From: Thermoplasmata archaeon
GTDB taxonomy: Archaea; Thermoplasmatota; Thermoplasmata; Lutacidiplasmatales; UBA184
Length of the DNA: 64,000 nucleotides
Reading direction: 5' to 3'
Assembly (NCBI GenBank): GCA_035504395.1
Contig: DATJRX010000042.1
Location: 593 to 64,592, forward strand
How positions within the stretch are numbered: position 1 is the first letter of the stretch; each line of letters opens with the position of its first letter. Positions 26,948 to 60,813 of the stretch are shown one piece after another. Made by a program: the position numbers and the translations under genes. A model generated the notes under the pieces. The model was not told the origin of the DNA. It saw only the letters and a program-made list of their open reading frames with translations, and did no database searches.

Positions 26948-27802
26948 ATGGACACCGGCCCCTCGAAGGCGCGCGTGGCGTCGGAGCCGTCCCTGATCGG
27001 GCTCGAGCTCCCGATGGTGGCGGCGACGAGCCAGTACGCCGAGATCGGCCACCTCGCCGGGCGACCGAAGGAGCCCCTGCCCCCCCGGCGGGTCGAGCGT
27101 GGGGTCGTGGTGTTCGATCTCGACGGAACGATCCTGGACGACCTCGGCCGGATCAGCGACGTGGCCGCCGACGTCATGGCGTCGGCGTTCGGCACCCCGG
27201 CGTCCGAGGCGCGTCTTCACTATCTCGCGACCACGGGGATGCCGTTCGAGGCGCAGCTCGCCCAGCTCTATCCCACGGCCCCCGCCGCGCTGCGCGCGGC
27301 GACCGCGCGCACGTTCCATCAGCGGAAGGTCGCCGAAGCGTACGCGAAGGCGAAGCCGTTCCCCGAGGTGCCGAAGCTGCTGAAGCGCCTCGGCGGGGAC
27401 CGATGGACCCTCGCGGTCTCGACCGGCGCAGAGACCGAGATGGCCGACCTGCTGCTCGAGCGGGAAGGTCTGCGGTTCTGGTTCGAGGACGTCCTCGGGT
27501 CGGGCGAGGGGACGAAGCGGGAGCATCTCGCGGAGTACCGCCGACGGTTCCCCGACGTCCCGATGTTCCTGGTCGGGGACTCGCGGTTCGACATGGAGGC
27601 CGCCTCGTCGGTCCCCGGAGTCCTTCCGGTCGGGCGGGCGTCGCGGCTGAAGGACTGGACGCTGTCCCCGCTGGACCTCAAGAAGTGGGGGGCGCGCTGG
27701 GCCGAGTACACCCTGAGCGATCTCCCCGAGGCGCTGGACCGGCTCGCGCGGCCGCGGGCCCCCCGGCCCAAGGCGCGGCGCGTGCGCGGGAAGAAGCCGT
27801 AG
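26948..27802 (+). CDS. HAD-superfamily hydrolase
   Basis: Motif I VVFDLDGTILDD and a later GDSRFD motif. The track ORF starts at TTG 26936. Basic C-terminal tail. Confidence 0.8.
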   Translation: MDTGPSKARVASEPSLIGLELPMVAATSQYAEIGHLAGRPKEPLPPRRVERGVVVFDLDGTILDDLGRISDVAADVMASAFGTPASEARLHYLATTGMPFEAQLAQLYPTAPAALRAATARTFHQRKVAEAYAKAKPFPEVPKLLKRLGGDRWTLAVSTGAETEMADLLLEREGLRFWFEDVLGSGEGTKREHLAEYRRRFPDVPMFLVGDSRFDMEAASSVPGVLPVGRASRLKDWTLSPLDLKKWGARWAEYTLSDLPEALDRLARPRAPRPKARRVRGKKP

Positions 27803-27910
27803 GGCCGGGACCGAGAGGTCCAGGGCGCGGGGTTCGGCCCCGCTCCCGTTTGAACCCGGGTCGAGGGATCCACAGTCCCCCAGGATAGGCCAAGCTACCC
27901 CATCCCGGCC
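27803..27910 (-). tRNA. tRNA-His (anticodon GUG) with a ~32-nt intron in the T-loop
   Basis: Hand-folded minus strand: G(-1), acceptor GCCGGGA/UCCCGGC, U8, D arm GGGU-AGCUUGGCCUA-UCCU, anticodon arm GGGGA-CUGUGGA-UCCCU, variable CGAC, T stem CCGGG/CUCGG. The T-loop UUCAAA is interrupted by 27816..27848. C73 pairs with G-1. No CCA is encoded. Confidence 0.8.
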
Positions 27911-27935: not shown

Positions 27936-27946
27936 AGAAAAGGTTT
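27936..27946 (-). promoter_or_regulatory. TATA-like element for tRNA-His
   Basis: Minus strand aaaccttttct centred ~30 nt upstream of the tRNA 5' end. Confidence 0.35.
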
Positions 27947-27953
27947 GCCTTGG

Positions 27954-28160
27954 TTAGCGGGCCGGCGGGGCCCCGGTCTCGGGAGCCTCGTGCTCGCGCA
28001 GCCAACGGCGGCGCTCCGCGCCCTCGCCGCGACCGACCTGCACGAAGAACGCGCCGAAGCCGATCGCGAGGAACGCCCCGAGCCAGCCCCCGGCGTACTC
28101 CCACCCGGCACCGGACCAGAGGAGTCCCACGATCAGAGCGACCCCCATGGCGATGACCAT
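27954..28160 (-). CDS. hypothetical small membrane protein (68 aa, 2 TM)
   Basis: MVIAMGVALIVGLLWSGAGWEYAGGWLGAFLAIGFGAFFVQVGRGEG..., the C-terminal end of track ORF 27954..29387. The rest of that ORF is a shadow frame. The start is uncertain (GTG 28175 is possible). Confidence 0.4.
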   Translation of the reverse strand: MVIAMGVALIVGLLWSGAGWEYAGGWLGAFLAIGFGAFFVQVGRGEGAERRRWLREHEAPETGAPPAR

Positions 28161-28350
28161 CGCCCCGCCCAGCACGAACGTGGTCTCGCGGAGCAGTCCG
28201 CGGGTCTCGGGTCGTAGCGCTCCCCGACCCCAAGGACGGCCGACCGGCACCGGGGGATCTCGCGGCACGGGTATCGCCCTCGGCCGCGAGGCGTCGCAAG
28301 CGTAAAGTCCGCTCGGGCGACGGCCGGGCGCGTCCCTCGGGAGGGAGTCG

Positions 28351-37886: not shown

Positions 37887-38714
37887 TCACTTCCTCGCCG
37901 GCGACCGCCGGCGCGCGGCCACCCGGGTGGCGAATATAAAGAGTACCCCGAAGAACGACACGATCCCGGCGACGTACCACACGGTGTACGACGGCGGGGC
38001 GCCCGGCACGAAGAACTGGACCGAGATCGACGTCGCGCCGCCGGCGAACGTGACGAGGCCGTGCTCCTGCGCGAGCGACGCGGTGAACGTGTGCTCCCCT
38101 TGGCTCAGGCCGAGCGTCGGGTACTCGAACGTCGCGGTGTAGTTCTCGCTCGGCGAGAGGTTCGGGATCGCGAGCGAGCCGACCGGCGTCCCGTCCAGGA
38201 AGATCGTCAGGTTGAACGCGGCGACCGCCGCGGACTTCCCGGTCTCCAGGTGGAGGGTCAGCGTGTACGGCTGGACCACGTGGAACACCCACGAGAAGTT
38301 CGCGGAGACGTTCGCCGACGCGTTCGTCGAGGAGACCTCGACCGTGAGGGTGAGCGTCTGCACGACGGTCCCGACGCTCACCGTGGTCGTGGACGGGGTC
38401 CCCGGCGTGAGGTTGCCGGACGCCGGGGTGACCGCCACGCCCGTCGTGTTCGTCCCGCCGATGGTGGCGAGCCAGGTCAGGTTGCCGACCAGCGTCCCGG
38501 CGGACGAGACCGCGGGGCCGCCGGTGCCGTTGATGAAGAACGTCTGGTTGGTGTTGGTCGACACGACCGTCGGGCCGGACAGGTTCCCGACGACCGGCGA
38601 GCTCGCCGCCAGCACGGGACCGGCGGGCGCCCCGGCCGCCGCCCCGGCGAACCCGGCCCCGAGGGCCGAGCCGAGGAGGAGGACGGCCGCGGCGACGAGG
38701 ATCCACGGCCTCAT
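37887..38714 (-). CDS. sequon-rich cell-surface protein with signal peptide and C-terminal TM anchor (CARDB-like)
   Basis: 275 aa from ATG 38714, which overlaps the aglB stop (ATGA). MRPWILVAAAVLLLGSALG signal, about 12 N-x-S/T sequons, C-terminal WYVAGIVSFFGVLFIFATRVAARRR. Confidence 0.75.
   Translation of the reverse strand: MRPWILVAAAVLLLGSALGAGFAGAAAGAPAGPVLAASSPVVGNLSGPTVVSTNTNQTFFINGTGGPAVSSAGTLVGNLTWLATIGGTNTTGVAVTPASGNLTPGTPSTTTVSVGTVVQTLTLTVEVSSTNASANVSANFSWVFHVVQPYTLTLHLETGKSAAVAAFNLTIFLDGTPVGSLAIPNLSPSENYTATFEYPTLGLSQGEHTFTASLAQEHGLVTFAGGATSISVQFFVPGAPPSYTVWYVAGIVSFFGVLFIFATRVAARRRSPARK
37933..37940 (-). promoter_or_regulatory. TATA-like element embedded in the 3' end of the glycoprotein CDS
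   Basis: Minus strand tttatatt is formed by the codons GTA CTC TTT ATA TTC, a run of A/T-ending codons in a GC3-rich gene. It is centred ~70 nt upstream of the Zn-ribbon ATG. Confidence 0.35.
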
Positions 38715-41700
38715 CGGCGCGTCCACCGCCGCGTGCGCCACCAGCGGTAGGTGAGCACCCCGACGACCAGGGCGATCGCCGGAACGAAGGAGAGCAGCGG
38801 CACCAGCCACGCCGGGCTCGACGGCGGCGGCGTCCCGAGGACCGGTCCGGTGACCGTCAACGGGTTCGTGCCGTTCGACGTATGCGGGGCGAGGGACGCG
38901 ACCGGGATCGGGAGCGCGACGAACGACTGGTACGCGCCGCTGTGGTTCGTCACCGAGGCCTGGACCGTCACGCTGCCGGGCACCACGAAGACCGGGGCGG
39001 CGGCCGTGAGCGAGACGTCGTAGGTGGAGTTCTCGAACGGCGTCAGCGAGATCGCGGTTCCGTTCACGCTCGAGCCCGACGTCGTGAACCCGACCGACCA
39101 GCCCTGGCCCTCGATCCGCGCAAGATCGACCACCGTGAGATCGACGGTCTCGACGGTGTTCCCGGTGTTCACGAGGTAGAACGGCACGCTCGCCGACGTC
39201 GGGCTGTCGACCGGCGCCCCGGCCGAGACGACCAGGACCCCATACACCGGGACCACCACGATCTGGAACGAGAAGGAACCGACCACGGTCCCGTTCGCGA
39301 GCTCGATCTGGACCTGTCCGTTCGGCTCGAGCGCGCTCGCGCCCGCCGGGATCTGGACCGTCATCGAGGCCGCGTAGGGCGCGGACCCGCCCCCGGGGTT
39401 CAGGGTGACGGACGTGAACGAGTACGAGAAGCCCCAGGACGCGGGGCTCCCTACGGCGTGGACGGTCACCGGGCTGTTCCCGATCGCGCGGATCGAGAAG
39501 GCGAACGAGGCCGAGCCGGGGGCCGCGACCGTGGCGGTGGCGCTACCGGTCACGGCGGCCGAGACGGCGTAGCTGTACACGTAGGAGAGGGCGAGGGTCG
39601 CGCCCACGTTCCCGTGGAGGATCGAGACCGGCATCGTCGCGCTCGCGTTGCTCGTGACCCCGTACGGGGTCCCGAACGAGGTCGCGGCGGCGACGTACGC
39701 GCCGACCGGGAGCGCGAGCTCGATCGGGGTGCCCGTCGCGACCCCGGGGAACGCGATGCGGGCACCGAGCGAGCTCGTGACCGTGACGTTCGCCGGCCCG
39801 AGGAGCGGGGCCGCGCCCGACGGAGCGGCCACGCCGATCGTCGCGGTCCACGCCGGCGACAGCGCGAACGTCACGACTCCGGGCGAGGAGAGCGAGACCG
39901 GGACCGTCGTGAGGTCGGCGAGCGGACTCGACGCGCCCCCGCCCGTGACGTAGACCGAGTAGTCGCCCGGCGCGAGCGCGACGGAGAACGCCCCGGTCGG
40001 GGCGGAGACCGTCGTCGCCGCGGTCGACGGGTACGGCCCGAAGAACGTGAGGTTGCCGGCGATCGCGCCGGGGACCCCGGACGCGGTGAGGGTACCGTTG
40101 AGGTAGACCGGTTGCGGGGCCGGGACCATGGTCACGCCGCAGGAGCTCGTGTTGTAGCCGGCGGTGCAGCTCGAGCCGGTCGCGGCCGTCCAGGCGGCGG
40201 TGTACACGCCGGCGGACCCGAGCTCGCGGGTCGTCGCGGACGCCGTGACTGCGTAGACGGTGTCCGCGGGGACCAGAACGGAGAACTTCCCACCCGAGAC
40301 CGCGATCGAGATCGTCGTGCCGTCCTTTCCGGTCAGCACGGCGGTCGTGTTGACCGCGAGGGCGACGTTCGCCGACCGTTCGAGCGTGCCCGTCAGGTCG
40401 ACTCCGGCGGTCCCGATCGCGAGCGCCGGCGAGACCTTCCCGCCCGCGCTGACGACCACGGGGGTGAGCGAGGCGTAGGTGGAGCTGCCGACCGTGACGG
40501 AGGCGTGGGCGGTGTAGGCGCCGGGCGCGACGTAGAACCCGTCGGTGTACGCGGTGCCGTTCACGGTGACGTTGAACGTCGGCGACGAGAGCCCGATCGA
40601 GGCGGAAGCGAGGGTCCCGCCGCTTGGGACGGAGACCGTCCCGGTCGAGTTCTTGAGCGTCGTCAGCACAAGCGAGACGCTGGCCGAGGTGCCCCCGATC
40701 GGAACGGTGAAGTTGACGGTCGAGGTCGAGCGATAGACCGTCGTCGCGTTGCCCGTCGGGGCCCACCCGCTGAGGGCGTAGGAGCCCGGGGCGAGCGCGG
40801 TGGAGAACGTCGGGCCCCCGAGGAGGGCGGTCGTGACCGCGGTCGCGCTCGTGGCGGTCGCGTTGACCCGCAGCACGTTCGCCGGGTCCCCAAGGACGCG
40901 GATCGTGACCGGGACCGGGCGGAGCGAGATCGGCAGGCTGGTGATCCCCGCCAGGGCGCCGGGGCTGAGGCCGCACTGGTTCGATCCGGAGTAACCGGTC
41001 GCGACCACGGACACGCAGTACGAGAAGGCCGGGCTCGGTAGCGCGGACGGGACGTACGCGGCGGCGACCCCGGCGGGAGAGGCGAGGACCGTGACGGACG
41101 GGCCGGCGGCCGTGCCCGCCGAGATCGTGACCTGCGCGCCCACCGCGGGGGCGAGGGTGCCGGAGGCGGTCGTGCTGCCGACGGTCGCGCTCAGCTCGAT
41201 CGCGGAGCTCGGTACCAGGCTGACGGTCGTGCCCGGGACGAGGCTCACGCGCGTGAGGGCGGCGAAGTTCTCGGAGTTCGGCTCGTTGATCCCCTGGACC
41301 ACGGAGAGGTTGTACGTGGCCGCCGGCAGGTAGAGCGCGAACGACCCGTTCACCGCCCAGGCCGACACGGGCACGCCGCTCGGGGTGTAGGCGGTGACCG
41401 CGGTCGCCGGCTCCTCGGACGGGTCCTCGGTCGCGACGGTCCCGCTGAGCCGGACCGCGGGCGCGAGCGCGAGGGTGAGGGTGGGGCCGGGCGCGAGCGC
41501 CGAGGCGACCAGCGACCCGACGGCGGTCGAGAGCGTCCCGCCGACGCGGGCCAGGACCGTGACCGTGTAGTTGGCGTACGGGAGCGCGATCGTCGCGACC
41601 CCCGCCGCGTTCGTGAGCGCCACGCTCCCGTTGCCGAGGGCGCTCTCGTAGGCGCCGATCGGCTCGACCGACGCGTTCGCGAACGAGGGGTAGGGAGTGA

Positions 41701-44700
41701 AGTCGACCGGGACCCCGGCGACCGGCGACCCGCCCGCGACCACCGATACCGAGGCCGTGGTGACCGGGCGGACCGTGAGGTTCTGCTCGAGCACCGTCGC
41801 CTCCGTGGCGAACGACACCGGGATCGTCGCCGACTGCTCCGAAGCGGTCGGGACGCTGGCGGTCAACGAGTAGTTGCCCGGCGGGAAGGTGCGCAGGGAG
41901 TACGTGCCGTTCGCGCCCGAGGTGTTCGTGACGACCGACCCGGTCGCGTTCGACAGGACGATGCGGGCGCCGGTGATGGGAACCCCGCCGGGCCCGTCCA
42001 CCGTGCCCTGGACCGAGGTCGCGGTGAGGCCGACGGACGAGTTCTCCTGCTCGGCCGGGGGCGGCTCGATCGTCAGCGCGGTCTGGGAGTAGTTGTACCC
42101 TCCGTAGAGGATGTCGTAGTTGTAGGTCCCCGGGGCGACGTTCGTGAACTGGAACGCGCCGCTGGCGTCGGTGGTCGTGACGAGCCGCGAGACGTTGTTG
42201 GGGCCCCAGAGCACGACCGACGCGCCCGACACGACCGGGTCCTGGGTCGGCTCGTAGGAGGTGCCGTTCGCGACGTTCCAGTAGACGAACCCGTGGACGG
42301 TCGATCCCCCGAGCACGATCGTCTCGGGGAGGTTCGGCGCGTTGAACGAGAGGGCGACGGACGGCGGGACGTAGAGGTGGAGGGTCTTCAGCAGCGTCGC
42401 GCCCTGCTGCGTGAGCCCCTGGAGGGCCCCGGTCGTGATGTTCAGCGTGTCGTTGCCGGGGGGGAGGACGAGGGAGAACGATCCGTCCGGGGCCGTGACC
42501 ACCGACTCGTGCGGGACCCCCCACTGGTCGAAGACCGTCACGCGGTCCCCTCCGATCGGGGCGCCGTTCGGGAGCTGAAGGTCCCCGAGCAGGGTCTGTC
42601 CGGGGTAGTACTCGAGCATCGACTCGCCGCCCGAGAAGTACTGGTAGGCGGACAGGTTCGCCTGGCCGCCCGAGCTCGCGGCGAGGGATCGGGCGCTCGG
42701 GGAGTTCATCGCGACCCCGCCGCTCGAACAGTTGGTCGCACCGGAGCCGGGCGCGCAGTAGTAGGCGGTCTGGTAGACGACCGCGAAGTGCTCGAGCATC
42801 CAGCCCGGCTCGACCGGGTCGCTCGCGACGCCGCCCTCGAGGCCCGGGATCCCCGCGGACTGGCCGATGTCCGTCCCGTTGTAGCCGAAGTACGTCCGGT
42901 AGATGAGCGAGTTATAGAACGGGGCGAAGTAGTTCACGTAGTAGTTGACCGGCGAGACGTCCGCCGGCACCGAGCCGAGCGGGTAGTAGTTCCCGTCCGA
43001 GCCGAGGACCGTGACGTTGAAGAAGCTCGTCGGAAGGCCGGCGCCGTTGATGACCCGGCCCGTCAGGTCCGCCGGCGCGTAGTAGATCCCGGTGTCCTGG
43101 CCGCTGAACGGGATCAGGCGGCTGTCGACCATGTCGTAGCGGATCGACCAGCCCGTGTAGAGCTGGATGTCGTTGTAGATCGTGGCCACGCCCGAGAGCG
43201 TCTGCGACGTGGCGATGAAGTGCGACATCACGAGGTACATCGCGTTGTCGTCGGTGAGCGTGCTCGGGTTGACCGGGAGGTAGACGTCGGGGTTCGCGAC
43301 GACCGCGTTGTAGTCGGCGCTCTCGTTGGTCATGTAGGAGTGGAGGCGGCTGACGTTGAGCCCGTCGCGCGCGAGGATCACGTTGAGGGACGCGGGGAGG
43401 TACTTCTCTCCCGACGCGAGCTGCTCCGCCTGCAGGAGGGTCGTCGCGAGGACCCCGATCGCGTTCGACTCGTTCTGCGCGAGGAGGAACTGGCCGGCGG
43501 GGTCGATCCCGTTCTGGAAGTTGTCGGCGACGCTCGGATGCTGGCCCTGATCGATCGCCTGGAACCCGTAGTCCCACCAACTGACGAAGGCGGGACGATT
43601 GGCGGCCGGGACGTTGGTGTCCTGCGTCGCGAGCCACGAGTACCCCGCGCTATCGTACAGGTTGGACGTGTCGAGGCTCGTGCCGGCGGCCCCGAAGTAG
43701 TTCGTCGCGGTGGACGAGTTGCCGCGCAGCCAGGTCGGCAGCGAATCGTAGACCTGGTCCGAGAATCCGGTCTTCGTGTTGCCCGGGATGCCCGCGTCGA
43801 TCCCGACCCAGACGTTCGGGAGCACGATCGCGACGATGAGCAGGAAGATCAGCACGTGGCGGGCCTTGAACGCCTTGCGGAAGGCGGCGAACTGGCTGCC
43901 GCGATCCGAGAGGGAGGCGACCGTCCGGCGCAGCGTCGGGTACCCCCCCACGTCGAGCGCCCGCTCGATCGCCTCGGCCGGAAGGAGGGCGAACGCGGGG
44001 GACCCGAGGAGGAAGAACTTCGCGGCGGAGATCGGGAGGTAGATCGACAGGACGGCGAAGATCAGGAAGACGATGTGCTGCCGCTTGAACCGCTGGCGGA
44101 TCAGCGCCCACACGAACAGCGCCACTCCGGCGAAGGCGAGGAAGAACGTGACGACCCCGTAGCCGACGACCAGCTGGTCGATCGACGGGGCCTGGGCCTC
44201 GGCGACGGTCGAGTAGATGAGGTTCTTGACGAAGTACCCCTGGCCCGTGACGATGCTCGTGAAGTAGCGCGGCTCGATGAAGAACAGGAAGAGCGCGGCG
44301 ACGAGCACGAGCCCGACGAGCGTCGGGATCGAGAAGACCCACGGGATGTCCCGCATCAAAAGGAACGGGAGCATGAGCGCGAGCGTCCCGAAGAACAAGA
44401 GGAGCGGAAGGTCGAACCAGGCCGAGAACTGGTGCTGCACGAGGTAGTAGGGAACCGCCATCGGGAAGCCGACGAGCCCGACGATCGCGGTCGTCACGTA
44501 GAGGCCGAACGAGTCGATCCGCCGCAGCCGCTCGATGATCATCGCGATCACGAGCGTGAGCCCGATCACGACGATCGCGTAGGTGTACCCCTGCCACGCG
44601 AGCGCGAGCGCCCCCATCGAGACCCCGGTGAACACCGCCCACTTCACCGCGGTCCGCTCGGTCCGCAAGAACGCGCGCAGCCCGGGCAGGTACTGCTTCG

Positions 44701-45307
44701 GGTCCCGATAGTTGGCGATCCAGCGGCGGGACCCGACCGCCTTGACGGTCCGGATGTAGGCGTAGATCGTGACGAGGATGATGAAGGTGTAGAACGAGAG
44801 ATAGTTCGCGTAGCCGAAGATCGACGAATCGATGTTCGCGCTCAGGAACGGAAAGATGATCGCGGCGATCAGGCCCATCCGCTTCGAGCTGATCTCCCGG
44901 CCGATCAGGTACACCGGGATGATCTCGAGCGCGGCCCACAGCGGTCCCTGAAGGTCGAGGAACCAGGCGCCGGCGACGACCGCGTTCCCGCCGAAGAACG
45001 GAGCGAAGACCAGGCCGAGGATCGCGTTCATCCAGTCGAACAGCGGCTCGCGGGGGTTGTAGCCGCCCACCGGGAAGTGGATCATCGGGTCGAACACGAG
45101 GTTCGCGTGGTTCGTGATGATGAACGTCGTGACGCGCGAGTGGTAGTACGAGTCCGAGCCGCCGGCGTAGGTGTAGAGCGGCCCGAACTGCTGGATGATG
45201 GGGTAGGTCCAGATGGTCCGGATCGCGAACGCGATGCCGATGGCCCCCAGAAGGATCGCGACCGTCCAGCCGTGACGGCGCCACCACCCGTATTGCGACC
45301 CTTCCAT
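38711..45307 (-). CDS. aglB: archaeal oligosaccharyltransferase AglB (STT3 family) fused to a ~1300-aa repeat-rich extracellular extension
   Basis: Uninterrupted 2198-aa ORF. N-terminal multi-TM region, EL5-type TVAE motif, WWDYG at residues 577-581 (nt 43565..43579). From about residue 910 there are repeated beta-sandwich-like units and a final TM plus basic tail. Confidence 0.9.
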   Translation of the reverse strand: MEGSQYGWWRRHGWTVAILLGAIGIAFAIRTIWTYPIIQQFGPLYTYAGGSDSYYHSRVTTFIITNHANLVFDPMIHFPVGGYNPREPLFDWMNAILGLVFAPFFGGNAVVAGAWFLDLQGPLWAALEIIPVYLIGREISSKRMGLIAAIIFPFLSANIDSSIFGYANYLSFYTFIILVTIYAYIRTVKAVGSRRWIANYRDPKQYLPGLRAFLRTERTAVKWAVFTGVSMGALALAWQGYTYAIVVIGLTLVIAMIIERLRRIDSFGLYVTTAIVGLVGFPMAVPYYLVQHQFSAWFDLPLLLFFGTLALMLPFLLMRDIPWVFSIPTLVGLVLVAALFLFFIEPRYFTSIVTGQGYFVKNLIYSTVAEAQAPSIDQLVVGYGVVTFFLAFAGVALFVWALIRQRFKRQHIVFLIFAVLSIYLPISAAKFFLLGSPAFALLPAEAIERALDVGGYPTLRRTVASLSDRGSQFAAFRKAFKARHVLIFLLIVAIVLPNVWVGIDAGIPGNTKTGFSDQVYDSLPTWLRGNSSTATNYFGAAGTSLDTSNLYDSAGYSWLATQDTNVPAANRPAFVSWWDYGFQAIDQGQHPSVADNFQNGIDPAGQFLLAQNESNAIGVLATTLLQAEQLASGEKYLPASLNVILARDGLNVSRLHSYMTNESADYNAVVANPDVYLPVNPSTLTDDNAMYLVMSHFIATSQTLSGVATIYNDIQLYTGWSIRYDMVDSRLIPFSGQDTGIYYAPADLTGRVINGAGLPTSFFNVTVLGSDGNYYPLGSVPADVSPVNYYVNYFAPFYNSLIYRTYFGYNGTDIGQSAGIPGLEGGVASDPVEPGWMLEHFAVVYQTAYYCAPGSGATNCSSGGVAMNSPSARSLAASSGGQANLSAYQYFSGGESMLEYYPGQTLLGDLQLPNGAPIGGDRVTVFDQWGVPHESVVTAPDGSFSLVLPPGNDTLNITTGALQGLTQQGATLLKTLHLYVPPSVALSFNAPNLPETIVLGGSTVHGFVYWNVANGTSYEPTQDPVVSGASVVLWGPNNVSRLVTTTDASGAFQFTNVAPGTYNYDILYGGYNYSQTALTIEPPPAEQENSSVGLTATSVQGTVDGPGGVPITGARIVLSNATGSVVTNTSGANGTYSLRTFPPGNYSLTASVPTASEQSATIPVSFATEATVLEQNLTVRPVTTASVSVVAGGSPVAGVPVDFTPYPSFANASVEPIGAYESALGNGSVALTNAAGVATIALPYANYTVTVLARVGGTLSTAVGSLVASALAPGPTLTLALAPAVRLSGTVATEDPSEEPATAVTAYTPSGVPVSAWAVNGSFALYLPAATYNLSVVQGINEPNSENFAALTRVSLVPGTTVSLVPSSAIELSATVGSTTASGTLAPAVGAQVTISAGTAAGPSVTVLASPAGVAAAYVPSALPSPAFSYCVSVVATGYSGSNQCGLSPGALAGITSLPISLRPVPVTIRVLGDPANVLRVNATATSATAVTTALLGGPTFSTALAPGSYALSGWAPTGNATTVYRSTSTVNFTVPIGGTSASVSLVLTTLKNSTGTVSVPSGGTLASASIGLSSPTFNVTVNGTAYTDGFYVAPGAYTAHASVTVGSSTYASLTPVVVSAGGKVSPALAIGTAGVDLTGTLERSANVALAVNTTAVLTGKDGTTISIAVSGGKFSVLVPADTVYAVTASATTRELGSAGVYTAAWTAATGSSCTAGYNTSSCGVTMVPAPQPVYLNGTLTASGVPGAIAGNLTFFGPYPSTAATTVSAPTGAFSVALAPGDYSVYVTGGGASSPLADLTTVPVSLSSPGVVTFALSPAWTATIGVAAPSGAAPLLGPANVTVTSSLGARIAFPGVATGTPIELALPVGAYVAAATSFGTPYGVTSNASATMPVSILHGNVGATLALSYVYSYAVSAAVTGSATATVAAPGSASFAFSIRAIGNSPVTVHAVGSPASWGFSYSFTSVTLNPGGGSAPYAASMTVQIPAGASALEPNGQVQIELANGTVVGSFSFQIVVVPVYGVLVVSAGAPVDSPTSASVPFYLVNTGNTVETVDLTVVDLARIEGQGWSVGFTTSGSSVNGTAISLTPFENSTYDVSLTAAAPVFVVPGSVTVQASVTNHSGAYQSFVALPIPVASLAPHTSNGTNPLTVTGPVLGTPPPSSPAWLVPLLSFVPAIALVVGVLTYRWWRTRRWTRR

Positions 45308-45353
45308 CCGCCGCGACGCTCCCCCGGCCGGCGGCGCGCGAGAATGGGCGGGC

Positions 45354-53339: not shown

Positions 53340-54206
53340 ATGGTGACGTCCGCGAAGCCGGTGCCTCCGATCTGGTGCCCCGGGTGCGGCGACTTCGGCC
53401 TCCTCGCCTCGGTCAAGCGGGCCGCGGCGGACCTGAAGATCCCCCCGCACGACCTGGTGCTCGTCGGAGGGATCGGGTGCTCCGGGTCGATCCACAACTT
53501 CCTCGAGGTCAACGGGATCCATGCGCTCCACGGGCGCCTGCTGGCGCAGGCGGTCGGCGTGAAGCTCGCGAACCCGCATCTGACCGTGGTCGCGGCCGGT
53601 GGCGACGGGGACGGCTACGCGATCGGCATGGGGCACTTCATGCACGCGTTCAAGAAGAACGCCTCGATCCTCTACCTCGTGATGAACAACGAGACCTACG
53701 GTCTCACGAAGGGTCAGCCGTCGCCGACGAGCCAGATCGGGTTCGAGGGGAACATCGAGCAGCCGTTCGACGCGATCCTGAGCGCGCTCTCGATCCCGGC
53801 CCCCAACTTCATCGCGCGGACGTTCTCGGGCGACCCGAAGACGATGACCGCGGTGCTCGAGGAGGCGATCAAGTTCAACCACGAGCACCGGGGCTTCGCG
53901 TTCGTCGAGGACCTCTCGCCGTGCGTCACGTACAACGACACGTACAAGCTCTGGCGCGAGAAGGTGCTCGACCTCTCGAAGCTGCCGGGCTACGACCCGA
54001 CCGACCGGCAGGCGATGTTCCGCCTGTACCTCGACACGGTGAACCAGGGCAAGATCCCGATCGGGATCATGCATCGGCCCAAGGAGGTCGCCGCGGCGGG
54101 CCTCGAGGCGAAGCTCCTGGGCACGGCCGTCGGTCCCGCTCGCTCGGACATCTCCCTCGCGTCGAACCTCGCCTCGTACCAGAAGCTAGTCGGCAGCGTC
54201 GCGTAG
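53340..54206 (+). CDS. korB: 2-oxoacid:ferredoxin oxidoreductase beta subunit (TPP-binding)
   Basis: 288-aa ORF starting right after the korA stop. Motifs WCPGCGDFG and GGDGDGYAIGMGH. Confidence 0.92.
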   Translation: MVTSAKPVPPIWCPGCGDFGLLASVKRAAADLKIPPHDLVLVGGIGCSGSIHNFLEVNGIHALHGRLLAQAVGVKLANPHLTVVAAGGDGDGYAIGMGHFMHAFKKNASILYLVMNNETYGLTKGQPSPTSQIGFEGNIEQPFDAILSALSIPAPNFIARTFSGDPKTMTAVLEEAIKFNHEHRGFAFVEDLSPCVTYNDTYKLWREKVLDLSKLPGYDPTDRQAMFRLYLDTVNQGKIPIGIMHRPKEVAAAGLEAKLLGTAVGPARSDISLASNLASYQKLVGSVA

Positions 54207-58984: not shown

Positions 58985-59794
58985 TCACTCCCGCCAGTCG
59001 ATCCCGACCGTACGGAAGCCGATCTTCGCGACCGGGGGAGGGCGCCGCTTGTGGCGGGTCGACTCGACCCGGTGCGCCACGCCGTGGACGCGCTCGATCG
59101 GAAAGCCGGTGATCTCGGCGATCTCCTCCTCGGTCCTCAGCTGCTCGAGGCCGTGGAGGATCTGGTCGATCTCGGAGTACGGCAGCCCGAGCTCCGCCTC
59201 GTCGGTCTGGCCTTCCCAGAGCCCGGCGCTCGGCGGCCGGGCACGGATCGCCTCGGGGAGGCCGAGCCGCTCGGCCAGCGCGCGGACCTCGGTCTTGTAG
59301 AGGTCGCCGATCGGAAGGAGGTCAACCCCGCCGTCGCCGTACTTGGTGAAGTACCCGAGGAGGAGCTCCGACTTGTTCCCCGTGCCCGCGACCAGGCGCC
59401 GGGACTCCCGCGCGATCGCGTAGAGCGCGGTCATGCGCACGCGGGGCGCGATGTTCCCGAGGGTCACTCGTTCCGTCACCTCCGGGACCAGGGATCGGAC
59501 CGCCGACTCGGCGGCCGCGATCGGCACCGTCCGGCTGGCGATGCCGAGGCTGCGCGCGTACGCCTCGGTCTCCCGCGCGAGGTCGGCGGGGAATCGCGCG
59601 TCCGGCAGGAGCACGCCGAGCACGTGGTCCGGTCCGAGCGCGTCGCGGGCGAGACGGGCGGTGAGGGCGCTGTCGATCCCGCCCGAGAGACCGACCACCA
59701 CGCCCTGCGCGCCGTCGAAGTGGGCGTGGGCGCGCAGGAACTGGTGGATCGTCGGCTCGGCGTGGGCCGGGAGCCGCGGTCGAAGGTCGGTCAC
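58985..59794 (-). CDS. nadE: NH3-dependent NAD+ synthetase
   Basis: 269 aa from GTG 59794, which overlaps the upstream stop. PP-loop GLSGGIDSALTA, GTGNKSELLLGYFTKYGDGG. Confidence 0.92.
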   Translation of the reverse strand: MTDLRPRLPAHAEPTIHQFLRAHAHFDGAQGVVVGLSGGIDSALTARLARDALGPDHVLGVLLPDARFPADLARETEAYARSLGIASRTVPIAAAESAVRSLVPEVTERVTLGNIAPRVRMTALYAIARESRRLVAGTGNKSELLLGYFTKYGDGGVDLLPIGDLYKTEVRALAERLGLPEAIRARPPSAGLWEGQTDEAELGLPYSEIDQILHGLEQLRTEEEIAEITGFPIERVHGVAHRVESTRHKRRPPPVAKIGFRTVGIDWRE

Positions 59795-60813
59795 GCCTCG
59801 ACCCCCAGGGGCTCGAGGGCGCGCCGCTGCGTCCACTCGGCGCGGCAGTCGCACGAGAGCTCCGCGAGCGGGCCGAACTCCTGGGCGAGGGACGCCTCCT
59901 CGATCGCGCCGAGCACGCGCGCATCGCACCGGCCACAGTTGTGCGGTCCGCGGGGCTTGCCGCCGGCCGTCGGGAACGAGACGAGCCGGGCGGCATCGCG
60001 GACCGCCGCGCCCGCGCGCAGCGACTCGACGACGCTCCACAGCCAGGGCGGCCGGTAGCGGCCCCGATGGTAGAGCCACTCCACCACGGTACCGTTCTGG
60101 ATGTGCACCGGGTTGATCGAGAGCGCATCGAAGTGGGCGGACGCCGCCGCCACGGAGCGCACCACGTCGTCGATCGACTCCTGTTCCGTGAGGTACGGCG
60201 GCTTCAGCAACAGGTAGGCCTTCGCGCGGAGACCGAGCGCGCGGACGCGGTCGCCGGCCGCGAGGTAGGCGCTCGGGGGCGCGTTCTTGTGGACGTACCG
60301 GGCGAGGACGGTCGGGTCGGTCGTCTCGAGCCCGAGCGCGACCTCGAGCTCCCCCGCGAACGCCGACCGGAGCGGGGCGAGCGCGGCCTCGGTCGCGAAC
60401 TCGGGGAGCGTCTCGAACAGGAGACGGCGCGCGCGGCCCGAGAACGCGGCGACGAACCGTTGGCGGCTCTCGGGGTCGACCTCCCGGTCGTCGAGGAAGC
60501 TACCCGAGGTGTAGACCTTCACGTACGGCTCGCCCCGGTACCGGGCGAGCGCCCGGTCCGTCTGCTCGCGGAGCTCCTCGGGCGTCGCCGAGCGCCCGAG
60601 CGTGTCCTTGGCGTAGCCGCACATCGAGCAGCCCTTCTGGTCGGCCCAGTAGCAGCCCCGCGTTTTCAGGATCAGGACGAACGCGTCGACGCGCTCCGGC
60701 CCGATCGCCTCGCGCTCCACCCACTGGTTCACGTAGCGACGGGCGGAGGTCCCGCTCGCGGGATCCGGCCGCCGGTCGTGCGCGACCGCGCGGGCGAGCG
60801 AGCCTCCGGTCAC
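59791..60813 (-). CDS. radical SAM protein, archaeosine-biosynthesis RaSEA-like (TIGR01210-type)
   Basis: 340 aa from GTG 60813, which overlaps the rbkR stop. Cys cluster GCYWADQKGCSMCGY near the N-terminus and a C-terminal Cys pair (CGRCD...CDC). The family call rests on remembered architecture only. Confidence 0.55.
   Translation of the reverse strand: MTGGSLARAVAHDRRPDPASGTSARRYVNQWVEREAIGPERVDAFVLILKTRGCYWADQKGCSMCGYAKDTLGRSATPEELREQTDRALARYRGEPYVKVYTSGSFLDDREVDPESRQRFVAAFSGRARRLLFETLPEFATEAALAPLRSAFAGELEVALGLETTDPTVLARYVHKNAPPSAYLAAGDRVRALGLRAKAYLLLKPPYLTEQESIDDVVRSVAAASAHFDALSINPVHIQNGTVVEWLYHRGRYRPPWLWSVVESLRAGAAVRDAARLVSFPTAGGKPRGPHNCGRCDARVLGAIEEASLAQEFGPLAELSCDCRAEWTQRRALEPLGVEA

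Follow-up and report, generated by a model that had tools for sequence, protein, structure and literature searches.

A 32-nt T-loop intron at position 59/60 interrupts the tRNA-His(GUG) gene of a soil Thermoplasmata archaeon

The tRNA-His(GUG) locus

The DNA that we analyzed (hereafter, the window) is a 64,000-nucleotide (nt) stretch from Thermoplasmata archaeon GCA_035504395.1, contig DATJRX010000042.1, positions 593-64,592 of the forward strand. On its minus strand, from 27910 to 27803, lies a real tRNA-His(GUG) gene, the T-loop of which is interrupted by a 32-nt intron between nucleotides 59 and 60 (59/60). This had been proposed in an initial annotation of the sequence, and is confirmed here by direct reading, by ARAGORN on the spliced form, and by a blind scan for bulge-helix-bulge (BHB) motifs. 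The parts of the gene are as follows.

27803..27910, minus strand: complete tRNA-His(GUG) gene, from G-1 (27910) to discriminator C73 (27803) (direct reading; ARAGORN on the spliced form; blind BHB scan)
27849..27910, minus strand: 5' exon, comprising G-1, the acceptor 5' strand, D arm, anticodon arm, variable region, T stem 5' strand, and U54-A59
27871..27873, minus strand: anticodon GUG, with G34 at 27873 (direct reading; ARAGORN)
27855..27859, minus strand: T stem 5' strand (49-53), outer BHB helix h, pairing with 27811..27815 (5/5 pairs, invariant in 69/69 sequences)
27817..27848, minus strand: 32-nt intron at 59/60 (BHB geometry; identical borders from the blind scan)
27811..27815, minus strand: T stem 3' strand (61-65), outer BHB helix h
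27803..27816, minus strand: 3' exon, comprising U60, T stem 3' strand C61-G65, the acceptor 3' strand, and C73

Read on the minus strand, the 5' part of the gene is G(-1)-GCCGGGA-UG-GGGU-AGCUUGGCCUA-UCCU-G-GGGGA-CUGUGGA-UCCCU-CGAC and the 3' part is CCGGG-UUCAAA-[33 nt]-CUCGG-UCCCGGC-C. Here, the acceptor stem (GCCGGGA/UCCCGGC) is Watson-Crick paired at 7/7 positions, while the T stem (CCGGG/CUCGG) has five base pairs, one of them G-U. All of the other elements listed beforehand (U8, A14, G18G19, A21, and U33) are present as well, together with G53-C61 and U54 U55 C56 R57 A58. As for the histidine identity element, a genome-encoded G-1 (27910) stands opposite the discriminator C73 (27803), again as described earlier, and G-1 is likewise encoded in 102/102 related loci listed. 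By direct reading, no CCA is encoded at the 3' end of the gene, which abuts the stop codon of a convergent HAD-family hydrolase gene (its open reading frame (ORF) ends at 27802), and on both of these points the initial annotation was also correct.

The inserted block that follows UUCAAA is 33 nt long (27848..27816), with its last base being U60 and the other 32 the intron. When these 32 of the 33 bases were deleted, the spliced window sequence was called a normal 76-nt tRNA-His(gtg) by ARAGORN (the CCA in the ARAGORN drawing of the spliced tRNA was appended by us). Excision of the intron from the unspliced 108-nt precursor restores a standard tRNA, having UUCAAAU as the mature T-loop and a cloverleaf with anticodon GUG. 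With the exon junction marked by a slash, the predicted spliced product reads ...GGGUUCAAA/UCUCGG..., or for the full 3' side, GGGUUCAAA/UCUCGGUCCCGGCC(CCA).

Predicted splice sites and bulge-helix-bulge structure

The two intron-exon junctions can be drawn as a strict 3-4-3 BHB (hBHBh'), in which two 3-nt bulges on opposite strands are separated by a 4-bp helix (H). The elements of this structure are listed below.

27851..27854, minus strand: central 4-bp helix H, exon strand U54 U55 C56 A57, pairing with 27819..27822 (U-A, U-G, C-G, A-U)
27819..27822, minus strand: central helix H, intron strand UGGA (helix 2 of the alignment, with 96% of cells paired)
27848..27850, minus strand: bulge 1, made of A58, A59, and the first intron base C, with the 5' splice site between 27849 and 27848
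27816..27818, minus strand: bulge 2, C C U60, with the 3' splice site between 27817 and 27816 (NNU in all listed variants, mostly ACU)
27823..27847, minus strand: inner helix h', GGG.GCGGGG / CCCCGC.CCC, with loop CCGAA (27833..27837)

Both of the flanking helices are present, with h (exon-exon) being the 5-bp T stem and h' (intron-intron) having 3+6 bp. In the window, the ten positions of h' amount to nine pairs and one A·G mismatch (3 bp, mismatch, 6 bp). The tRNA splicing endonuclease (EndA) cleaves a BHB after the second base of each bulge, and because this rule was applied to the two bulges, we placed the intron borders at 27848..27817 and took the U at 27816 as nucleotide 60. Moreover, the cut rule agrees with the invariance of U60.

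The same borders came from the blind scan, for which we collected on both strands all strict 3-4-3 BHBs whose flanking helices reach 3 bp or more and whose introns measure 11-70 nt, spliced them in silico, and passed them on to ARAGORN. From the 10,146 candidates in the window and about 800 kb of related loci, the scan recovered tRNA-His only, and in the window this was exactly one tRNA with its intron at 27848..27817. No other BHB-interrupted tRNA was found by this strict-BHB splice-and-scan in the 64-kb window or in the related loci. Two looser searches were made as well. A relaxed BHB scan of the window gave, besides tRNA-His, only odd ARAGORN calls of 82-100 nt, and a loose regular-expression search for further tRNAs with an interrupted T-loop yielded 79 candidates other than tRNA-His, none of them plausible in GC-rich DNA. 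Among the calls from relaxed BHB scanning were odd 'tRNA-Gly(acc)' ones at 60009..60040, which are probably spurious.

Other kinds of insert were considered and rejected. The relaxed BHB forms (hBH, HBh', and BHL) have a bulge that is missing or not 3 nt long, whereas both bulges in the window are of 3 nt. A self-splicing group I or group II intron would have a ribozyme core of hundreds of nucleotides, as against an insert of 32 nt, and there was no match in Rfam. Nor does an intron-encoded box C/D guide RNA (as in tRNA-Trp) fit, as neither a C box (RUGAUGA) nor a D box (CUGA) is found in CGGGAGCGGGGCCGAACCCCGCGCCCUGGACC. Alternatively, the 32 nt could be kept in the mature tRNA as an extra arm. 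However, were U54-A57 to stay paired with the insert, the contact between the T-loop and D-loop that the L-shape needs would be lost, and the exact BHB geometry, along with its conservation, would be left unexplained, which together make a retained arm scarcely credible.

Conservation, covariation, and detection among relatives

The features that flank the tRNA gene in the window are these.

26948..27802, plus strand: convergent HAD-family hydrolase gene, with a stop codon abutting C73 (Pfam HAD_2/Hydrolase; 284-aa product P0001)
27936..27946, minus strand: promoter-like element AAACCUUUUCU, at -36..-26 from G-1, a putative TFB-recognition element (BRE)/TATA (conserved at a fixed distance)

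To sample relatives independently of the tRNA sequence, we retrieved nine loci (L001-L005 and L246-L249) through homologs of the HAD protein having 77-100% identity. In 9/9 of these, a tRNA-His gene lies immediately downstream of the HAD gene, with exons identical to those of the window and introns that have diverged (the 5' exon is identical to the window in L003, L005, and L246-L249). Included among the nine are a 2.18-Mb contig (L003, ERZ25039467:contig_19268) and a Lutacidiplasmatales assembly (GCA_044452065.1). The HAD protein itself has hundreds of close homologs that are named 'Thermoplasmata archaeon', and one named 'Candidatus Lutacidiplasmatales archaeon'.

A metagenome scan with a 30-nt 5'-exon pattern ending at A59 gave at least 120 matches, and in about 100 of those listed, a block of 30-33 nt (U60 included) is followed by the same 3' exon. 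Taken together, the metagenome and synteny sets comprise at least 105 loci and at least 87 distinct intron variants, with introns of 29-32 nt and a locus GC of 58-75% among the intron-containing loci listed. With about 105 loci and 87 intron variants carrying this same gene, the feature is far beyond chance. In the segment left unconstrained by the search, namely the acceptor 5' strand and the D arm, there are nine variants, which differ only at nucleotide 9 and in the D-loop.

Among the 87 listed variants, the block ends in U without exception (87/87), whereas it can begin with any of the four bases (G 65, U 10, A 6, C 6). Opposite C56 there is only G and opposite U54 and U55 only purines, and A57 faces U in 61/87 (H being fully paired) and G or A in 26/87. 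Since H is built from the T-loop bases U54-A57, the 3' end of the intron is fixed as YGRR-NN. In 87/87, 7 + 7 nt separate the inner helix from the T stem, even though the length of the hairpin varies. Aligned without gaps (A1), the 69 variants whose block is 33 nt long have 94.5% of their cells paired in the proposed structure versus 31-62% when the partners are slid by 1-3 columns, and double (compensatory) changes are seen at seven of the ten h' pairs. In fact, there are 80 compensatory cells as compared to 31.6 ± 3.9 in shuffles, and 0/500 shuffles reached the covariation score. RNAalifold predicted the inner helix independently.

Two earlier suggestions about the intron fared differently here. 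The GC hairpin that had been pointed out corresponds to h' and bears the compensatory changes just described. On the other hand, the suggested pairing of the intron's 5' CGGG with C61-G64 has to be dropped, as it is not conserved and the 5' end of the intron varies (GCGG, GAGG, AGAG, UCGG). Instead, the 5' bases pair with the intron's own 3' CCC, again with compensatory changes.

No intron-less (spliced) allele with the exons of the window was found in 241 million metagenome records. A further 17 of the metagenome matches listed lack the intron; these tRNA-His genes have another acceptor stem and lie on contigs of 42-58% GC. Their T arm, CCGGG-UUCAAAU-CUCGG, is the same as the predicted spliced T arm of the window. 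As a separate observation, these intron-less loci (L131, L135, L161, L162, L166, L172, and 11 others) share the same anticodon and T arms but carry the acceptor GCCAGGG and T or A at -1; G-1 is not genome-encoded in these genes, which implies its post-transcriptional addition. L131 adjoins a gene for an aIF5B that shares 83-97% identity with database proteins, many of which bear the name Methanoregula. For a negative control, we used a scan of genome contigs with a generic pattern, which returned at least 120 rows from bacteria and Crenarchaeota, with no Thermoplasmata among the matches listed. Here, 121/121 tRNA-His genes of other taxa (matches listed, having the same anticodon-arm/T-loop pattern) close the T stem directly. 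Viral contigs matched neither the 5'-exon pattern nor the 3' junction, and therefore gave no sign of the gene being an integration site.

One could also regard the locus as a pseudogene, in other words, a tRNA-His gene inactivated by a 32-nt insertion, with a working copy elsewhere, and that neither ARAGORN nor Rfam calls the locus would be in line with this. However, over the 87 listed intron variants the exons remain intact and hardly change, compensatory substitutions are seen in the intron, both G-1 and the promoter-like element have been kept, and an intron-less allele is missing from the 241 million records. Moreover, for a Lutacidiplasmatales genome, tRNAs for all 20 amino acids were reported by tRNAscan-SE 2.0 in archaeal mode (PMC9287336), which by default searches for non-canonical BHB introns (PMC8450103). 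Altogether, a pseudogene is very improbable.

That standard scanners would miss the gene, as was foreseen in the initial annotation, holds for ARAGORN and Rfam. In the raw window, ARAGORN found no tRNA, and Rfam gave nothing at the gathering score and nothing relevant at E values up to 10 on the local region. The intron mode of ARAGORN (-i) gave three 'tRNAs' in the window with introns of 114-2378 nt, which we rejected as spurious. While both tools detect the intron-less Methanoregula-type genes (54.9 bits), the intron-containing ones are missed or misbounded. In some relatives, ARAGORN calls a tRNA-His with wrong lengths (78-92 nt) and boundaries (L005 3831-3922, L129 5503-5592, L152 10732-10809, and L178 9083-9162), and therefore the automated annotation of this tRNA will be inconsistent between genomes. 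When annotated with ARAGORN or Rfam/Infernal, genomes of these widespread soil Thermoplasmata can seem to be without a tRNA-His unless the tool is BHB-aware.

Upstream of the gene, AAACCUUUUCU is found at a fixed distance in nearly all of the listed loci, with the flanks diverging, while lower-GC relatives (L137, L156, and L222) have TTATATG or TATAAG in its place. The element is thus a candidate BRE/TATA promoter. The form AAACCTTTTCT, which recurs at a fixed distance upstream of tRNA-His in ~100 high-GC Thermoplasmata loci, may show what promoters look like in this uncultured group. Every syntenic locus has a small ORF (70-104 aa) lacking any Pfam match directly upstream of, and on the same strand as, tRNA-His (window ~27954..28270, minus strand; L001 2696-2971; L003 4142-4375; L005 3968-4252; L246 1186-1437), and in the window its stop codon (27954..27956) is 44 nt before G-1.

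Elsewhere in the window, which has a GC content of 71%, there are typical archaeal genes, including those for topoisomerase VI A and B, an STT3-type oligosaccharyltransferase, and a CTP-dependent riboflavin kinase. The STT3 ORF (38711..45352, minus strand) encodes 2213 residues, with an N-terminal STT3 (oligosaccharyltransferase) domain followed by CarboxypepD_reg-like repeats, and is unusually long for an archaeal AglB-type protein. At ~59000..60800 (~1.8 kb), there is no ORF with the strong third-codon-position GC (GC3) signal of the other genes, only long overlapping ORFs on both strands. A covariance model (R1) built from the T arm and intron gave a second match at 53737..53801 (plus strand, 24.9 bits, UCGGGUUCGAG...CUCUCGAUCCCGGCC), the 3' end of which matches the tRNA-His acceptor strand. 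As it lies inside the thiamine pyrophosphate (TPP)-binding domain of a 2-oxoacid:ferredoxin oxidoreductase beta gene and there is no cloverleaf upstream, we judged it as chance.

Proposed splicing of the precursor and comparison with known systems

Taking together the gene anatomy, the BHB geometry, and the conservation and covariation across relatives, we put at about 90% the probability that the locus is a functional and obligatorily spliced tRNA-His(GUG) gene of a high-GC, Lutacidiplasmatales-like Thermoplasmata archaeon, with a 32-nt protein-spliced intron of archaeal type at 59/60. We infer the following course of events for its expression. The BRE/TATA-like element, some 26-36 nt upstream, would drive transcription. 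Within the precursor, pairing of the T stem would be kept, U54-A57 would pair with the UGGA at the 3' end of the intron, and the remainder of the intron would form the GC-rich hairpin, giving a strict hBHBh' with two 3-nt bulges and 4 bp between them. EndA would then cut between A59 and C and between C and U60, after which an RtcB-type ligase would join the exons, restoring the 7-nt T-loop UUCAAAU, and would probably circularize the intron. Finally, the tRNA would be completed by RNase P, which would keep the encoded G-1, by RNase Z, and by the addition of CCA. These enzymatic steps follow those of known archaeal tRNA splicing (PMC6379350, PMC4090602).

There are several points that weigh against this interpretation. 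Splicing of the precursor is something that we infer from sequence, and a second tRNA-His gene elsewhere in the genome is possible. A phmmer search with M. jannaschii EndA as the query (identical to PDB 1A79) returned no EndA from the window or from 860 kb of related loci. In the metagenome set, the invariance of the segment from the anticodon to the T-loop was imposed by the search pattern, and that of the 3' exon (T stem and acceptor 3' strands) by the near-exact filter with which it was found, so only the HAD-synteny loci are free of such bias. Energetically, the 4-bp helix H is weak. The local minimum free energy (MFE) fold of the window's T arm and intron is a register-shifted 3-6-3 (-27.0 versus -24.6 kcal/mol), in relatives the MFE is lower than the canonical BHB by a median of 3.6 kcal/mol, and in the RNAalifold structure, which consists of the T stem and inner helix alone, H is unpaired. 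Because H is weak and appears in neither the local MFE nor the RNAalifold structure, the case for it is mainly comparative and geometric. Folding had been recommended at the outset as a check for a BHB at the junctions, and the outcome is that a strict 3-4-3 can be drawn, although not as the local MFE. The MFE of the full 108-nt precursor contains bulge 1, H, and the inner helix (z = -1.8).

The shifted local fold raises the prospect of another splice register, either a 3-6-3 motif or one in which the first base of the block serves as nucleotide 60, and the T-loop would then be non-standard. Yet the 3-6-3 needs CC in bulge 2, which is found in only 2/87 listed variants (most have AC), and therefore this fold is peculiar to the window's own sequence. 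Moreover, the shifted register would leave a T-loop of 5 nt, the first base of the block varies while the last is always U, and UUCAAAU is the T-loop of the intron-less homologs, too. We thus consider a different register to be highly improbable.

More deserving of attention is whether the junctions are a relaxed BHB, for which splicing would need a broad-specificity EndA of the (alpha-beta)2, epsilon2, or specific-loop type. In its favor, G or A opposite A57 reduces H in 26/87 listed variants to 3 bp with a mismatch beside bulge 1, the MFE fold is not the canonical BHB, and reviews tie non-canonical intron positions to broad-specificity enzymes (PMC4033280, PMC4090602). On the other hand, the window motif is paired at 4/4 positions, with bulges of exactly 3 nt and flanks of 5 bp and 3+6 bp, the 7+7 nt spacing holds in all 87 listed variants, and in T. 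acidophilum, a relative in culture, EndA is of the narrow alpha'2 type (PMC6379350). Overall, a requirement for a relaxed enzyme seems unlikely, but the variants with G or A opposite A57 would leave room for some mismatch tolerance by the EndA of the clade. The initial annotation had predicted a relaxed-specificity EndA from the position of the intron, and this is not needed, because the window offers the strict 3-4-3 hBHBh' that the narrow alpha4 and alpha'2 enzymes require as their substrate (PMC3239211, PMC6379350).

Returning to the obligatorily spliced gene, its most notable property is stability, with the intron kept at the same site and at nearly the same length across a broad radiation of soil Thermoplasmata, for which this is probably the only tRNA-His gene. 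As a tentative proposal, about which we have more doubt than confidence, the T-loop intron could be old and fixed clade-wide in the only tRNA-His of Lutacidiplasmatales-like Thermoplasmata, and these would carry only a narrow alpha'2-type EndA. If true, splicing at a non-canonical site would be needed to make an essential single-copy tRNA, in a lineage for which reviews restrict introns to 37/38, and intron position and EndA specificity would be uncoupled in vivo. The persistence of the intron may come from its breaking up the T-arm/3' segment commonly targeted by integrases, or from its gating the folding or modification of the T-loop. In a phylum whose cultured members have a narrow-specificity EndA, this gene is a clean natural case of a strict BHB in the T-loop, and its stability over so wide a radiation (at least 87 intron variants, GC of 58-75%) argues that motif strictness, rather than position, limits intron persistence. 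The clade also supplies a simple substrate with which the motif-strictness idea could be tested using recombinant alpha'2 EndA.

In our literature search, we found no report of this specific tRNA-His intron. What is new is this tRNA-His intron, whereas introns at 59/60 and non-canonical introns in Thermoplasmatota are already documented. The BHB, with 3-nt bulges around a 4-bp helix, occurs in canonical form in the T-loop as well (PMC6379350), and 59/60 is a recorded position for archaeal introns (PMC4090602, PMC3239211). In ARMAN-2, a strict hBHBh' is found at 59/60 in pre-tRNA-Pro(GGG) and a relaxed hBH at 59/60 in pre-tRNA-Cys(GCA) (PMC3239211). These share with the present gene the 59/60 T-loop site, the protein-spliced type, and a BHB at the junctions, with the tRNA-Pro motif also being a strict 3-4-3. 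In contrast to the ARMAN-2 and other 59/60 cases, ours involves the His isoacceptor, belongs to soil Thermoplasmata rather than DPANN or Crenarchaeota, has a single intron in the gene, and is fixed across a broad clade at a constant length (29-32 nt).

According to reviews, euryarchaeal introns sit at 37/38 (PMC4090602). With such introns, which are handled by alpha4 or alpha'2 EndA, the present one shares a strict 3-4-3 hBHBh', one short intron per gene, and a presumed narrow enzyme, but its helix H is made of the universally conserved T-loop bases U54-A57 and not of anticodon-loop bases. The initial annotation had considered a T-loop intron unusual in a euryarchaeon-like context. It is indeed rare in this branch, but the rarity was overstated, since the tRNAscan-SE 2.0 survey counted 25 non-canonical introns among 545 in 144 Euryarchaeota, including six in Methanomassiliicoccales (three genomes) and one in Thermoplasmatales (five genomes) (PMC8450103 Table S7). 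The introns of these two orders share the phylum (Thermoplasmatota) with ours and are likewise classed as non-canonical in position, with no isotype or position given for them in the table, and the Lutacidiplasmatales-like clade lies outside that survey.

As in the multiple-intron tRNAs of Thermoproteales and Thaumarchaeota, the intron is located outside the anticodon loop and is flanked by a BHB. There, however, the introns are many, often relaxed, and apparently mobile, and occur with an (alpha-beta)2 EndA, whereas the present gene has a single stable intron whose motif is strict. Lastly, the split tRNA-His of Nanoarchaeum equitans is a case of the same isoacceptor being disrupted and then repaired through a BHB (PMC4090602), but with the tRNA split at 37/38 between two loci and trans-spliced, while the Thermoplasmata gene is contiguous and has a cis intron at 59/60.

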